Shown: positions 5,978-59,876 of the stretch, piece after piece
Position numbering within the stretch: the stretch's first letter is position 1
How the letters are laid out: the number at the start of each line of letters is the position of its first letter
IMG/VR virus record: IMGVR_UViG_3300029841_000009
Span: 4,544 to 68,543 of that record
Origin: a virus
Taxonomy: Duplodnaviria > Heunggongvirae > Uroviricota > Caudoviricetes
Reading direction: 5' to 3' (one strand)
DNA: 64,000 nt
The notes under the pieces: generated by a model
The model's database searches: none
The model's input: only the letters and a program-made list of their open reading frames with translations
What the model was told of the DNA's origin: nothing
Translations under genes and position numbers: made by a program

Positions 5978-6970
5978 TTACACCACGCGGGCTTCTGTTT
6001 CCAGAAGCGCATCAGTTTCACGGATTGGTACACCACGGAATGAAGTCCACCACTCGCCTTCAGTCTCTTTTACGCTGATAGCCAGAGATGTTTTCTCCAG
6101 AGATTGCAGATCAAGAGCCTGGCCTACAGTGCGGTTCATGTAGAACACCGGGCGGCCCATGCCACGGTTTGGAATGCGATGTAGTGCTTTAACCATCAAC
6201 TTCGCAATATTTGCGGCAGAGGATGGTTCTGAAATATTGCTGACATCGATGTTTGCAATGCGAACAACATAACGCCAGTCACGCAGAGCAAGTCCGTTAT
6301 CCCATTTGTAATGGGTGCGATAGCCTTCGTACTTGCCGCCATTAGCATCTTCCAGTGTCACCTGGCCTTTATCTTCCATCTGGATGCCAGCCTTCTGCCC
6401 TTTCGGGAAGATGCCATGCACGGTGTTTTCGCCCCACACCACTAACCAGATTGAGGTGTTATCTGTACCCGTGCCACCAGCATCAATGATGTTCTGAGCA
6501 TTACCCGCAGACAGGCTGGAATAGCGGGAGGACAGTCCCATAAACTGCTGAGGGTTAACGCTGGAATCACCATAAAACAGCGTCTGCGCCATCTGCTGAT
6601 TCATCGCTTCAATAAATGCGCGGTCTTCAGACAGGCGGAATTCGGCGGTATTGCCGTTCAGATCAGCCAGTGACTTATCGACTTCCGCATAGGTTTCCAG
6701 CATGCCAACGGAATCGGTTACCTGCACTGTGGTTGATTTGCTTGGCTGTACGCCATAGTTCAGCAAACGCCAGGTAGCTGAAGGTAAACCAGAACGAATG
6801 GTGGTTCGGTGTCCGGTAGGAAGGTTCCCTTCGACAAAAGGCATATCCTGAAGGATCGGGTTAGTTTGACCGAGAAGCTCGATAATCTTATCGACTTTCC
6901 CGTTTGGATCGACGCGCTTACCCCAGTCAGCCAGCGTTAGCGCAGTTAAGCCTTTAACAGCCATTGTCAT
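5978..6970 (-). CDS. Major capsid protein
   Basis: 330 aa, between scaffold and tail genes; size and position of T7 gp10-like capsid protein. Confidence 0.65.
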   Translation of the reverse strand: MTMAVKGLTALTLADWGKRVDPNGKVDKIIELLGQTNPILQDMPFVEGNLPTGHRTTIRSGLPSATWRLLNYGVQPSKSTTVQVTDSVGMLETYAEVDKSLADLNGNTAEFRLSEDRAFIEAMNQQMAQTLFYGDSSVNPQQFMGLSSRYSSLSAGNAQNIIDAGGTGTDNTSIWLVVWGENTVHGIFPKGQKAGIQMEDKGQVTLEDANGGKYEGYRTHYKWDNGLALRDWRYVVRIANIDVSNISEPSSAANIAKLMVKALHRIPNRGMGRPVFYMNRTVGQALDLQSLEKTSLAISVKETEGEWWTSFRGVPIRETDALLETEARVV

Positions 6971-10297: not shown

Positions 10298-10374
10298 GTG
10301 GCATTAGCTCAGTCGGACAGAGCAACCGCCTTCTAAGCGGTTGGTCGCAGGTTCGAATCCTGCATGCCACGCCA
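10298..10374 (+). tRNA. tRNA-Arg (anticodon UCU)
   Basis: Cloverleaf read by hand: acceptor GTGGCAT/ATGCCAC, D-arm GCTC..GAGC, anticodon stem ACCGC/GCGGT with loop CTTCTAA, T-arm GCAGG-TTCGAAT-CCTGC, discriminator G, CCA. Confidence 0.8.
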
Positions 10375-21606: not shown

Positions 21607-21621
21607 ACCACATTTTGTGGT
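21607..21621. promoter_or_regulatory. Operator site (ACCAC-ATTTT-GTGGT)
   Basis: Perfect palindrome of the same family, upstream of the 21657 gene. Confidence 0.5.
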
Positions 21622-22166: not shown

Positions 22167-22835
22167 ATGGAGTCTCGACAAATGACTATCTCTGTAGGTA
22201 TTTTCAACGGAAAAGGCGGCGTAACCAAATCAACAATTGCCCGTGCTTTAGCAGTTGCTTATGCAAAGGCTGGCTGGAATGTATGCCTGATCGATATGGA
22301 TGTGCTTAACGGAACGGTAACGCGTTGGGTACAACGCAGAATGGCCAACAATATCGAACCAGCAATCGCGGCGCAGCCGTGCGGCACACCATCACAAGTC
22401 CAGAAAATCATCGAATCAGAAGTATACGACCTGGTTATCGTCGATGGCGGTGCCTACGCATCTGAATCAGTACCGAAGCTCTCTGAATTTCTGGATATGG
22501 TTATTTTGCCAACCAGATTCTCTACCGATGACCTGGAAACCACCGTTAACACAGCTCACGGCATCGTTAAAAAGGGTGTACCAATCAAGAAAATTTGCAT
22601 GGTGTTTTCCGGCGCGGCTGAAAACGAAGCTGACTATATTGAAGCCCAAGAGTACCTGGCTAATACGCCATACTTTGTTGTCGATAAGTACATTCCCCAC
22701 AAGCCAGCTCTGAGCAAAGCTCAGGATAAGGGCTTAAGCCTTATTGAGTGCTCATACGTTGCGCCACGCAAAAAGGCAGACGATGTTATCCAGGGGATTA
22801 TCAATCAGCTTGAGGCTCTGACTACTGCCGCGTAA
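22167..22835 (+). CDS. parA: ParA/Soj-family partition ATPase (start possibly 22182)
   Basis: Deviant Walker A GIFNGKGGVTKST; about 220 aa, typical small ParA; GGAG SD 9 nt upstream of the second ATG. Confidence 0.8.
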   Translation: MESRQMTISVGIFNGKGGVTKSTIARALAVAYAKAGWNVCLIDMDVLNGTVTRWVQRRMANNIEPAIAAQPCGTPSQVQKIIESEVYDLVIVDGGAYASESVPKLSEFLDMVILPTRFSTDDLETTVNTAHGIVKKGVPIKKICMVFSGAAENEADYIEAQEYLANTPYFVVDKYIPHKPALSKAQDKGLSLIECSYVAPRKKADDVIQGIINQLEALTTAA

Positions 22836-23349: not shown

Positions 23350-23371
23350 AAAAAAGGCCCCCGAAGGGGCC
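23350..23371 (-). terminator. Rho-independent terminator (minus-strand orientation)
   Basis: GGCCCC-cgaa-GGGGCC hairpin with T5 on the minus strand. Confidence 0.5.
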
Positions 23372-23377
23372 TAATCG

Positions 23378-23500
23378 CTACTTGCTGCTAATGTTTATCG
23401 TCACATTCAGAGCGTTATCAGTAATCTTCCAACCCTCCCCATGTGGCGTAAACAAAGCTCCAGTAACAACGATAAAAATACACATACAGTATTTTTTCAT
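23378..23500 (-). CDS. Small hydrophobic protein (40 aa, MKKYCMCIFIVVTGALFTPHGEGW...)
   Basis: Internal start of the 23378-23560 ORF with AAGGG SD 7 nt upstream; hydrophobic N-terminus; terminator downstream. Confidence 0.3.
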   Translation of the reverse strand: MKKYCMCIFIVVTGALFTPHGEGWKITDNALNVTINISSK

Positions 23501-23731
23501 TGTATGGCCCTTACAGGCCGTTTCACGGCATCCCCACCGACGAAAACAACGCGAGAGCAAGCACGGCTGCTTGTGCTTGCATGTACGGCAACGGAGAATC
23601 CTCCCCTAAAGTCGGTGCCCGGGTGCGAATCGGCGGGAAGGTCCACAGGTATTTTACGATTATTTTAAGATTAGTTATAGGAAAGAAATTAAACGAAAAA
23701 ACTCGTTTATTTTCACAAAATCAGTAACCTA

Positions 23732-23746: not shown

Positions 23747-23943
23747 TTTGCAGGCACAACAAGAACCACAATTTTATGAAGCATAATAGTGGACTATTAT
23801 TACCTTTTGGGTAAAATTAACTTGCTGCTTGTGCTTGCGTGGTTGTTTATACAACAACGTAATGCTGAAAGGACCGCGAATCCGATCAGCACGAAAGAAC
23901 CGTCCTCAATAGGGCGGTTTTTTTGTTTCTGCCTACCAATAAA

Positions 23944-23958
23944 CCCACACTATGTGGT
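23944..23958. promoter_or_regulatory. Operator-like site (CCCAC-ACTAT-GTGGT) upstream of the antirepressor operon
   Basis: Palindrome of the operator family, next to a TTGACA -35-like hexamer at 23985. Confidence 0.45.
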
Positions 23959-24014
23959 TGTCTCTGTTAAAATCCCGCCGTATTGACATAAATGCGCCAT
24001 TGGTGGACACTTTC

Positions 24015-24095
24015 CGAGCCGTAGCAAAATCTACGGTCGGGATTGGAACCCCGATAATCATCATGGCGCATACCGCGTTAGCGGTTTTTTTATGC
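24015..24095 (+). ncRNA. Candidate c4-like antisense/regulatory RNA in the antirepressor leader
   Basis: Hairpins CCGTAG-caaaat-CTACGG and TCGGG-AUUGGAA-CCCGA, then terminator ACCGC-gtta-GCGGT plus T7; loop UUGGAAC is complementary to GUUCCAA at 24175-24181. Confidence 0.3.
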
Positions 24096-24256
24096 GTAAA
24101 GCACTGCTACACCCAAATTATGGTGGGGCGTGCGGGGGAGTCGTAAGACTCGCCGGATTCCATGGTGACCGGTAGTTCCAACCCTGTACGTCTCACCACC
24201 CAATGATTGGAACCAGACGGTGGTGAGTATCCTTAACCTTTAAGGGAACTATCACC

Positions 24257-24448
24257 ATGACAAACCTACCCCATGACTATTACGTCAACCTCGTAAAGAT
24301 CCTTCTCAAGAAAGCCTCATACGCCGATAAATTCCGCCTGGCTGAAATCATCGAGCGCGAAGCTATGCGCATCGCCAGCAACGATAACGCTGTTTCTGTC
24401 GCAAAAATCTCCCTCGTAACCAAAGTAGTTATGGGAGGTGCAAAATGA
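24257..24448 (+). CDS. Small protein translationally coupled to the antirepressor (Icd-like position)
   Basis: 63-aa ORF; its stop overlaps the ant ATG (ATGA). Confidence 0.4.
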   Translation: MTNLPHDYYVNLVKILLKKASYADKFRLAEIIEREAMRIASNDNAVSVAKISLVTKVVMGGAK

Positions 24449-25626
24449 AAACGCTTCCGACCGTTAACACCCTACAGCCTATCCTGCATAACCAGCTCCC
24501 CGTTATCACTACTGAACTACTGGCGCAATTGTATGGAACCGAGCGCCAACGTCTGACAAACAATTTCAATAGAAACAAGGAACGTTTTATAGAAGGTAAA
24601 CACTTTTTTAGGATAGAAGGTAAAGAGTTACGAGAGTTGAAGAACAAAAACTCTTTAAGAGTTCCTGTGAGAGTAGTTAACGAACCATCTTTAAGAGGGT
24701 TACAAATTCCCCCGAAAGTTCGCTCCCTCATCCTCTGGACAGAACGCGGGGCTGCACGTCACGCCAAAATGCTTGAAACTAACCAAGCGTGGGATGTGTT
24801 CGAACGGCTGGAAGACAGCTACTTCAACCAGAACGCACAAACGGCCGCGACCGTAACCGTCTCACCAAACAATGCTCGTGAGGTTGTCGATACGCTCAAC
24901 GCCAAACCAATGTATTACGTTAAGGTGTGCAACAACGAGCCACTCACAACCTCAGCCGATGTTGCCCAAGCATTCAGCACCACAAACAATTCCATCGTTA
25001 TGGCCATCGATGCGTTACGCATTCCTCGCACGGCTGCGGCGCGTCACTTCTTTAAAGAACAACGACCGCTGGAAGGAAGCGACCGCGAAATAACAATCTA
25101 TCGCATGACAAAAGACGGATTTACCTTGCTCATGGAAAGTATCGACGGTCCAGGCGTGAAGGATATCAAGCTGGCCTACATTGAAGCCTTTAACGCTATC
25201 AGCAGCGTGTTAAAGGCAGAATACGAGCGAATGCTATACAACCGACTGTATCAGGAAACAAAGATTATCCGAACGGCAACAGAACATCATCGGCTATTAA
25301 CGGAACCAAACTACCGCAAGACACTAATCAAAGAGTTTGACAAGGCGACGGAGAAAACTAAAGCGGCACTAAATCTACCAACAATGACTAAAGATGATGT
25401 GATATCAGCCTTACTTCTTGATCTGCTCAGAAACGCCAGAGCACTTATCAGTTTTGACGAAAACCTGAATCCTCAGCTCAAGCTACTACCACCGACAGGC
25501 AAAGTAGTCGACCAAGCAGATCACAACAGCATACTCAGCGTACTGGATGCAAACCTGCCAGCCAGGACACTACAGGAGCTGATAAAAATATCTGCGGATA
25601 AACTGGCCGCAGGTGCAAAACCATAA
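24445..25626 (+). CDS. Antirepressor (ORF6N-like N-domain + Rha-like domain)
   Basis: N-terminal LYGTERQRLTNNFNRNKERFIEGKHFFRIEGKELRELKN; central ITIYRMTKDGFTLLMESIDGPGVKDIKLAYIEAFN (Rha-type). Confidence 0.75.
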   Translation: MKTLPTVNTLQPILHNQLPVITTELLAQLYGTERQRLTNNFNRNKERFIEGKHFFRIEGKELRELKNKNSLRVPVRVVNEPSLRGLQIPPKVRSLILWTERGAARHAKMLETNQAWDVFERLEDSYFNQNAQTAATVTVSPNNAREVVDTLNAKPMYYVKVCNNEPLTTSADVAQAFSTTNNSIVMAIDALRIPRTAAARHFFKEQRPLEGSDREITIYRMTKDGFTLLMESIDGPGVKDIKLAYIEAFNAISSVLKAEYERMLYNRLYQETKIIRTATEHHRLLTEPNYRKTLIKEFDKATEKTKAALNLPTMTKDDVISALLLDLLRNARALISFDENLNPQLKLLPPTGKVVDQADHNSILSVLDANLPARTLQELIKISADKLAAGAKP

Positions 25627-59800: not shown

Positions 59801-59876
59801 TGGTGGCCCCTACCGGATTTGAACCGATGACCGTGCGATTATGAGTCGCCTGCTCTAACCACTGAGCTAAGGGGCC
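59801..59876 (-). tRNA. tRNA with CAU anticodon (tRNA-Ile2-like, or Met)
   Basis: Minus-strand read GGCCCCTTAGCTCAGTGGTTAGAGCAGGCGACTCATAATCGC...GGTTCAAATCC...GGGGCCACCA; close to my recollection of E. coli ileX in acceptor, D and anticodon arms. Confidence 0.8.

Follow-up and report, generated by a model that had tools for sequence, protein, structure and literature searches.

Organisation of the locus

The locus described here lies on the plus strand of the window, by which we mean the whole 64-kb stretch of phage DNA that was analysed, and consists of a structured leader followed by two reading frames. The first frame (24257–24448) is a 63-aa leader ORF that takes the position of icd in phage P1. 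It matches PHROG 7886 over its full length (E = 2e-46, function unknown), has no Pfam match and gives no BLASTP alignment with P1 Icd. The second (24445–25626) is preceded by a Shine-Dalgarno sequence of its own, GGGAGG at 24434–24439, and encodes a 393-aa antirepressor-like protein with ORF6N and Rha domains (Pfam ORF6N, E = 2e-21; Phage_pRha, E = 3.8e-12), which matches several PHROG anti-repressor families (best E = 2e-59) and shows no similarity to P1 Ant1 by BLASTP (best E = 0.53). The stop of the 63-aa ORF overlaps the start of the second frame through ATGA at 24445–24448, in keeping with the coupling of a small ORF and an antirepressor that a preliminary description had read here. In an Rfam scan of the entire window two adjoining families exceed their curated gathering scores, isrK and then C4, and both lie in the leader.

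Predicted promoter and IsrK-like leader RNA

A predicted σ70 promoter spans 23983–24011, with TTGACA at 23983–23988, already picked out as a −35-like element in the preliminary description, a 17-nt spacer and GACACT at 24006–24011. GACACT agrees with the −10 consensus at just three of six positions, for which reason our consensus promoter scan passed over the site. Its placement agrees with that of promoter P1c4 (former P51b) annotated in the P1 record AF234172, and TTGAYN-17-TAYAnT motifs are found 5' of isrK in 16 other loci. Given the position relative to P1c4 and to the isrK model, transcription is predicted to start near G24018. Further upstream, the palindrome CCACACTATGTGG at 23945–57, considered as a candidate operator for a primary repressor, has one additional copy at 21608 (0.04 expected); T-rich runs follow both copies, which may instead be small terminators. 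A duplex of the plus-strand RNA 23820–23926 with a ryfA-like RNA was computed without a control and we draw no reading from it.

The segment 24018–24091 matches Rfam isrK (RF01394) over the full length of the model at 70.2 bits, where the gathering score is 50 (E = 5.5e-13 for the 64-kb window), and corresponds to the a1-b1 region of P1 plus a terminator. The Rfam family c4-a1b1 (RF03163; PMC2864571) matches at 24005–24057 with 38.2 bits, under its gathering score of 46.7. Like IsrK, the segment has two 5' hairpins and a Rho-independent terminator. Hairpin 1 occupies 24018–24037. Hairpin 2 (approximately 24037–24054) has a GC stem, UCGGG/CCCGA, and presents in its loop, AUUGGAAC, the first of the specificity elements discussed below; a pair of hairpins, one with a loop on a GC stem, had been noticed before, the latter at 24036–24056. 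The intrinsic terminator, ACCGC-GUUA-GCGGU followed by seven U, had also been seen correctly, with coordinates (24076–24095) about 4 nt away from its actual position at 24072–24091, where it is returned by a terminator scan as well. All three hairpins are recovered in the minimum-energy fold.

The C4 antisense RNA

Downstream of the terminator, positions 24116–24203 match Rfam C4 (RF01695) at 84.3 bits, where the gathering score is 45, covering model positions 1–87 of 87 (E = 4e-15 for the 64-kb window). This 88-nt RNA has the layout of the family, a 17-bp closing stem (24121–37 with 24182–98) enclosing hairpin 1 (24138–51) and hairpin 2 (24152–73), with one specificity element in the hairpin 2 loop and the other in a single-stranded junction. 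Folded alone it reaches −44.2 kcal/mol (z = −4.66) in a structure identical to that of Rfam. The cloverleaf was absent from the preliminary description, as were the b elements described below and the placement of one of them over a start codon.

Among the 17 phage loci that we compared (see below) pairing of the closing stem is complete (100% of cells), with six compensatory pairs, and AUUAUGGUGGG and CCACC are unchanged in all 17. Putative RNase P determinants, AUUAU/GGUGGG and the ACC that follows the stem, are likewise invariant. RCCA is known to make contact with RNase P. The mature form of C4 is predicted, by comparison with its homologues, to be a 79-nt RNA (24122–24200) that starts with GGUGGGG and ends with CACC; the curated c4 misc_RNA of P1 has the same GGU start and the same CACC end. 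The mechanism of C4 and its processing by RNase P at GGW have been described (PMC5320573, PMC8198154).

Specificity elements and the probable repressor

We name the elements after the curated P1 record, with a for the junction element and its first target, and b for the loop element and the target close to the ribosome-binding site. Element a1, UUGGAAC (24043–49), sits in the loop of the second IsrK-like hairpin, and b1, UCAUCAUGG (24058–66), is single-stranded and ends 5 nt before the terminator stem. Within C4, b' (CCAUGGUGA, 24160–68) fills the hairpin 2 loop and a' (GUUCCAA, 24175–81) the single-stranded junction. Element a2, UUGGAAC again (24207–13), follows C4 by a few nucleotides, the same position as the annotated a2 of P1. 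Finally, the initiation region of the 63-aa ORF (24242–24259) comprises a Shine-Dalgarno sequence, AAGGGA at 24242–47, and b2, UCACCAUG (24252–59), which covers the AUG at 24257–59.

The complementarities are extensive: a' and a2 form seven Watson-Crick pairs, b' (24161–68) and b2 form eight, AUG included (−12.5 kcal/mol), and b' and b1 form nine, one of them G-U. Both elements of C4 can therefore pair with sites downstream of it, one of these at the point where translation of the first ORF begins, and duplicate targets lie between the predicted promoter and C4. The spacing differs between the partners, 38 nt from a2 to b2 vs 6 nt from a' to b', as it does in P1, so that looping out would be needed for simultaneous binding. 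The 10-nt repeat GAUUGGAACC, whose copies at 24041–24050 and 24205–24214 hold a1 and a2, is unremarkable alone (four matches vs 3.97 expected with one mismatch). The composite TTGGAAC...TCAYCATG, which joins a to b, is present in the window at these sites only, where 0.00–0.01 matches are expected. When C4 was co-folded with either the mRNA leader or the IsrK-like RNA in RNAcofold, there was no net intermolecular gain (ddG 0), loop-loop pseudoknots being beyond the reach of the method.

The preliminary description had placed GUUCCAA at 24175–24181 and the second copy of the repeat at 24205–24214 exactly, and had taken the former as the target of an antisense RNA of about 80 nt from 24015–24095. 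These assignments do not hold. GUUCCAA is the a' element of C4 itself, and the RNA from 24015–24095 is the IsrK-like segment, which carries a1. Since a1 has the same sense as a2, such an RNA cannot pair with the initiation region and pairs with C4 only. A terminated 5' RNA (~24018–24091) that represses through its AUUGGAA loop would account for the loop complementary to 24175–81, and an RNA of such a size is to be expected from the isrK match and the terminator. It is nevertheless a very improbable repressor. Its a1 and b1 have the same sense as a2 and b2, and the only stretch that it can pair with is in C4, 76 nt 5' of the AUG. The homologous IsrK RNA promotes translation of the antirepressor (PMC4825925), and P1 uses as its repressor the c4 RNA, located downstream of a1 and b1 (AF234172). 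The Northern probe proposed earlier would pick up an RNA of the predicted length and lend seeming confirmation to the wrong model. From the arrangement of the elements we hold with considerable confidence that the repressor is C4, in its predicted mature form 24122–24200, and not the ~80-nt RNA at 24015–24095.

Co-variation among related loci

The nearest relative of the region is Yersinia phage vB_YpM_39 (99.5% identity), and vB_YpM_41 and vB_YpM_44 are 92.7% identical. The region is also found on ~48-kb non-mobilizable E. coli plasmids. In 73 complete E. coli genomes it is present over almost its entire length, in most of them at 95–99.8% identity, and just the two CDSs are annotated there. 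We considered and rejected the idea that the 64-kb window runs more than once round a 48-kb circle, as sequences ~48.6 kb apart share short repeats only.

For a wider comparison we used 17 phage loci, including a P1-like phage, ST64B, phiP27, phiV10, P88, cdtI and several Stx phages. In all 17 an isrK-type element lies 24–35 nt upstream of C4, and canonical P1 and P7 have the same tandem, with isrK slightly under threshold. Bro-N, Rha, ORF6N and other antirepressor-type genes stand behind the RNA module in the other loci. This reinforces the view that the isrK and C4 tandem is a conserved unit behind which the protein cargo is freely exchanged. This locus and P1 have just the RNA module in common, and not the proteins.

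The structures co-vary; the preliminary description had proposed folding and covariation in homologues as a check. In the 17-locus alignment the helices of IsrK, terminator and C4 are 95.4% paired, with 18 compensatory pairs and none of 500 shuffles scoring as high, a figure that, like the Mann-Whitney and cognate statistics, overstates independence in that the 17 loci are phylogenetically related. The a1:a' helix is paired in 95% of cells, and six of its seven positions have changed on both sides. Pairing of a' with a2 is sensitive to alignment: on the MAFFT alignment 55.7% is paired at slide 0 vs 79.8% at slide +1, the row of the window being displaced by one column.

We also compared cognate and non-cognate partners by the energies of their duplexes in positional windows. 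Looking over whole targets for the longest stretch of complementarity, with G-U allowed, was too noisy to tell the two groups apart. Cognate a'/a2 duplexes average −9.7 vs −4.1 kcal/mol for non-cognate ones, cognate b'/b2 duplexes −11.7 vs −6.2 kcal/mol, and the two remaining C4 interactions −14.0 vs −7.1 and −11.6 vs −4.2 kcal/mol. All four interactions thus favour the cognate partner by 5.5–7.3 kcal/mol, and the 17 related loci have 13 and 15 different specificity sequences.

In our reading the clearest evidence of co-variation comes from vB_YpM_41. Its alleles are a = UUGGCGU and b = UCAUCAUGA, and it differs from the window at 42 of 526 columns, 15 of these differences falling inside the 54 nt of a and b elements. 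There are two differences in C4 hairpin 1, which compensate each other, two in the 189-nt ORF, and none in the remaining structural stems, among them the closing stem, the hairpin 2 stem and the IsrK hairpins. We predict from these sequences that the allele of the window and vB_YpM_39 and the allele of vB_YpM_41 and vB_YpM_44 are heteroimmune. The RNA family matches, the structures and the complementarities with their co-variation are established by sequence and comparison, as are the overlap of the two genes and the placement of b2 over the AUG.

These comparisons also bear on whether the locus is a decayed, non-functional immI relic. The weak −10 hexamer and cargo genes unrelated to those of P1 would fit such a relic. 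We nevertheless consider it exceedingly improbable, as every element is intact with perfect complementarities of 7–9 nt, the specificity changes are coordinated among close relatives, and most of the 73 E. coli genomes keep the region at 95–99.8% identity.

Folds of the whole leader

A further hairpin (24192–24227) is formed by CUCACCACC at 24192–24200 and GGUGGUGAG at 24219–24227, the 9-bp stem recorded with exact coordinates in the preliminary description. It displays a2 in an 18-nt loop, much as hairpin 2 of the IsrK-like RNA displays a1. This stem takes its 5' arm from C4, namely the 3' strand of the closing stem together with the tail, and because this arm is shared the two stems are mutually exclusive. 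Across the 17 loci the 9-bp stem is conserved, with 90.8% of cells paired and four pairs changed on both sides, compared with 32–60% for slid controls. A switch role for this stem is a hypothesis.

The minimum-energy fold of 24018–24275 (−98.3 kcal/mol, z = −4.77) pairs a1 with a' and b1 with b' in cis. When the folds of the whole leader were constrained, the cis-paired form gave −98.3, the a2 hairpin −97.1 and the modular form with separate IsrK and C4 structures −96.0 kcal/mol, a spread of 2.3. In the fold of the processed leader GGUGGU pairs with AUCACC and the Shine-Dalgarno sequence is buried.

The cis-paired minimum, the buried Shine-Dalgarno sequence and the genetics of the Salmonella prophage Gifsy-1 (PMC4825925) would suit a switch of the Gifsy-1 type, in which a1-b1 paired with a'-b' silences the read-through mRNA with its ribosome-binding site sequestered, the IsrK-like RNA opens the fold in trans, and free C4 plays a minor part. 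We regard this as unlikely to be the main mode here. The modular fold with an intact C4 costs just 2.3 kcal/mol more, and the IsrK hairpins would form first during transcription. Moreover, the invariant RNase P determinants and the retention of a2 and b2 in 17 of 17 loci are unexplained without a trans-acting C4, and a separate ORF lies downstream of C4 here, unlike in Gifsy-1.

Proposed mechanism

Taken with the Rfam C4 and isrK matches and with the same architecture as in P1 AF234172, these data bear out the assignment to the c4-icd-ant type made in the preliminary description. We think it very probable, on sequence grounds, that the locus is an unannotated copy of the RNA switch of the P1/P7-type secondary immunity system, immI. 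By analogy with P1, there is a strong case that it works as an antisense module in which C4 RNA blocks translation of the antirepressor operon.

The model that we favour takes the promoter and start site, the processing, the sign of regulation, the polarity and the mimic role from homologues. Transcription would start at ~24018 from a constitutive promoter at ~23983–24011. Part of the transcripts would end at the weak 5-bp terminator (24072–24091), giving a 74-nt IsrK-like RNA that displays a1 and b1. The read-through RNA would hold the C4 cloverleaf, which RNase P would cleave between U24121 and G24122, and 3' trimming near 24200 would leave a stable C4 of ~79 nt. This RNA would then pair with the mRNA of its own operon, a' (GUUCCAA) with a2 at 24207–13 and b' (CAUGGUGA) with b2 at 24252–59. 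Because b2 includes the AUG, 30S binding at the 63-aa ORF would be blocked. The antirepressor, whose gene overlaps the stop of that ORF, would for this reason be silenced too, through loss of translational coupling and probably through Rho-dependent polarity as in P1. Biere, Citron and Schuster (1992) reportedly described such polarity in P1. The order of events, with repression of the first ORF and then of the antirepressor, is that of the P1 model (PMC8198154). The IsrK-like RNA, or a1-b1 in cis, would act as a target mimic that sequesters C4, so that repression is tuned or relieved; judging from the homologous systems, titration of C4 by the a1-b1 RNA is probable.

Satellite phage P4 offers another precedent, as P4 immunity works via premature termination of transcription. 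Applied here, C4 would pair with a1 and b1 on the nascent leader and enforce termination at 24072–24091 or downstream, the translational block being secondary. Four observations suit this mode: b1 stops just short of the terminator stem, an alternative hairpin (24064–24080) shares nucleotides with b1 and with the terminator's 5' arm, a1:a' co-varies as strongly as the downstream sites do, and the authors of the IsrK study liken IsrK to seqA and STnc1160 to CI RNA, whose pairing leads to premature termination (PMC4825925). Against it, constitutive STnc1160 did not lower the IsrK-mediated effects in Gifsy-1 (PMC4825925), and the position of b2 exactly on the start codon implies translational control. 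We judge termination somewhat unlikely as the primary mode. The termination mode and the translational mode are mutually compatible.

A more elaborate form of the antisense model can be put forward tentatively, and we see it as conceivable without favouring it. Here the IsrK-like RNA would be a dedicated C4 sponge and, together with the a2 hairpin that shares an arm with the C4 stem, would make up a processing-coupled switch that sets the threshold for the antirepressor. Such a switch might pass through three states, in which the leader is paired in cis, C4 is set free, or the a2 site is on display, a scheme to which we give the same guarded weight. If true, it would unify the models for P1 c4, P4 CI and Gifsy-1 IsrK.

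Comparison with known immunity systems

The immI operon of P1 and P7 is reportedly the subject of work by Citron and Schuster (1990). It comprises the c4 antisense RNA, icd and ant1/2 (GenBank AF234172, AF503408), and the annotation of AF234172 lists promoters P2c4 and P1c4, a1, b1, a 77-nt c4, a2 3 nt past c4, b2 on the icd ribosome-binding site, icd and ant1. The window follows the same order, with promoter, a1, b1, a terminator-like hairpin, C4, a2, b2, a short ORF and, overlapping it, the antirepressor gene. The C4 RNAs belong to the same Rfam family with an invariant GGU 5' end and CACC 3' end, and the pattern of allelic specificity between the window and vB_YpM_41 resembles that between P1 and P7.

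There are several differences from P1. In the window b2 lies on the AUG, whereas in P1 it overlaps the Shine-Dalgarno sequence of icd. The product of the short ORF is not related to Icd, and an ORF6N/Rha protein takes the place of Ant1/2, so the arrangement (icd first, ant1/ant2 as cargo) is analogous while the proteins differ. The window has a strong U7 terminator after b1. The immI promoter of P1 is under an operator of the primary repressor (Oc4/Op51), and no C1-type operator was identified at the window locus. Lastly, the element that carries the module here is not a P1-like phage but an E. coli phage-plasmid of ~48 kb.

The second relative is the isrK-orf45-anrP locus of Gifsy-1 with STnc1160 (Hershko-Shalev et al. 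2016, PMC4825925). There, compensatory mutations proved that the hairpin 2 region of IsrK pairs with a downstream C4-like region, anrP translation rose more than 100-fold with IsrK in trans, and a processed STnc1160 RNA of ~80 nt was detected (PMC4825925). The 5' RNA of the window resembles IsrK in its above-gathering Rfam match and in having two hairpins and an intrinsic terminator, for which partial read-through is assumed from IsrK. Its complementary partner downstream is again a C4-family RNA, and an antirepressor-like gene follows. In loci of the Gifsy-1 type (SW-37, L010) the antirepressor comes directly after C4 and 'orf45' overlaps C4, whereas the window has its separate 63-aa ORF downstream of C4.

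The likeness to P4, with its CI RNA, seqA and seqC, is one of layout and was drawn by the authors of the IsrK study (PMC4825925): in each case the leader transcript holds the target sequence twice, once on either side of the processed small RNA. To our knowledge, P4 immunity has no antirepressor cargo. The link of IsrK to the C4/CI family is already implicit in the Rfam c4-a1b1 family and in the P4 analogy of the IsrK paper, and the immI-like locus of the window adds nothing fundamentally new to RNA biology. A 2025 review still handles IsrK and c4 separately.

Annotation of the module

The practical value of the locus lies in annotation. Recognising the module identifies a secondary immunity determinant of the ~48-kb phage-plasmid family, within which immunity types become predictable. 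In the record of the nearest phage neither RNA is annotated and all listed CDSs except one are called 'hypothetical protein'; both RNAs are also unannotated in the RefSeq ~48-kb E. coli phage-plasmids that carry the region. Several phage records draw protein CDSs over the RNA genes.

Alleles of the leader

We compared the leader of Yersinia phage vB_YpM_41 (1578–1835 of its fetched locus, L003) with window positions 24018–24275 and find the two almost identical outside the a and b specificity elements, which are changed. In the allele carried by vB_YpM_41 and vB_YpM_44, a is UUGGCGU/ACGCCAA and b is UCAUCAUGA/UCAUGAUGA. The b1 element of the isrK-like RNA is the same in vB_YpM_41 and the window, and pairs with both variants of the b′ element of the C4 RNA. 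Since a and b differ in vB_YpM_41/44 while the remaining leader is almost identical, a single phage-plasmid family is predicted from these sequences to hold two heteroimmune types.

Further pairings are found near the initiation region (24219–24259). In the window allele the b2 region (AUCACC) has a further complement, GGUGGUGAG, and the fold predicted for the processed leader includes a CCUUAA/UUAAGG hairpin (24231–24245) that buries the Shine-Dalgarno sequence. Comparison with the vB_YpM_41 leader, from which this hairpin is absent, suggests that it may be allele-specific or fortuitous.

Region upstream of the immI-like module

Directly upstream of the immI-like promoter, vB_YpM_39 carries an insertion of ~670 bp relative to the window (window 23931–23940), and because of this position we place the start of the conserved module at about 23941, as judged from the compared sequences. 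The insertion codes on the minus strand for a 179-aa protein (6039–6578 in the fetched locus, L001), a similar gene being present in vB_YpM_41, and this extra gene might regulate the immI-like promoter. The palindrome CCACANNNTGTGG occurs exactly twice in the window (0.04 copies expected), once 3′ of the cI-like repressor gene (21608–21620) and once ahead of the immI-like promoter, 26 nt before its −35 (23945–23957). These copies could be operator sites or, since T-rich runs come after both, small terminators.

Rfam ryfA (RF00126) matches the minus strand at full length at 23350–23646 (142.3 bits), adjoining a ParA-like partition gene (22167–22835). Inside the match lies a small hydrophobic minus-strand ORF, MKKYCMCIFIVVTGALFTPHGEGWKITDNALNVTINISSK (about 23378–23500). 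In Salmonella ryfA codes for the type I toxin TimP, and the ryfA-like locus may therefore serve the phage-plasmid as a plasmid-addiction module. On the plus strand, a promoter scan gave the promoter-like site TGGACT-16-TAAAAT (23790–23817), 3′ of which a structured stretch (within 23790–23925) closes with a strong terminator, GAACCGUCCUCAAUAGGGCGGUUUUUUU (about 23898–23925). The 23790–23925 stretch is conserved in vB_YpM_39 and has a weak RNAI-like Rfam match (26.7 bits, E = 0.015); it may represent an sRNA oriented divergently to the ryfA-like gene, for example an antitoxin or copy-control RNA.

Extent of the element and annotation of related records

At 64 kb the window is longer than the plasmids and phages that match it (about 48–49 kb). 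Wrapping of a circular sequence does not explain this, only short repeats being found at an offset of ~48.6 kb. Thus, either some of the window lies beyond the known element or the element is larger here. Rfam identified two tRNA genes, at 10298–10371 (plus strand, 73.3 bits) and 59804–59876 (minus strand, 67.0 bits).

In several public phage records protein CDSs are drawn over the isrK or C4 RNA genes (fetched loci L003, 1722–2009; L007, 1486–1674; L011, 1456–1599; L016, 1459–1708); a 95-aa CDS of vB_YpM_41, for example, begins within the C4 loop. These CDSs are probably mis-annotated RNA genes.
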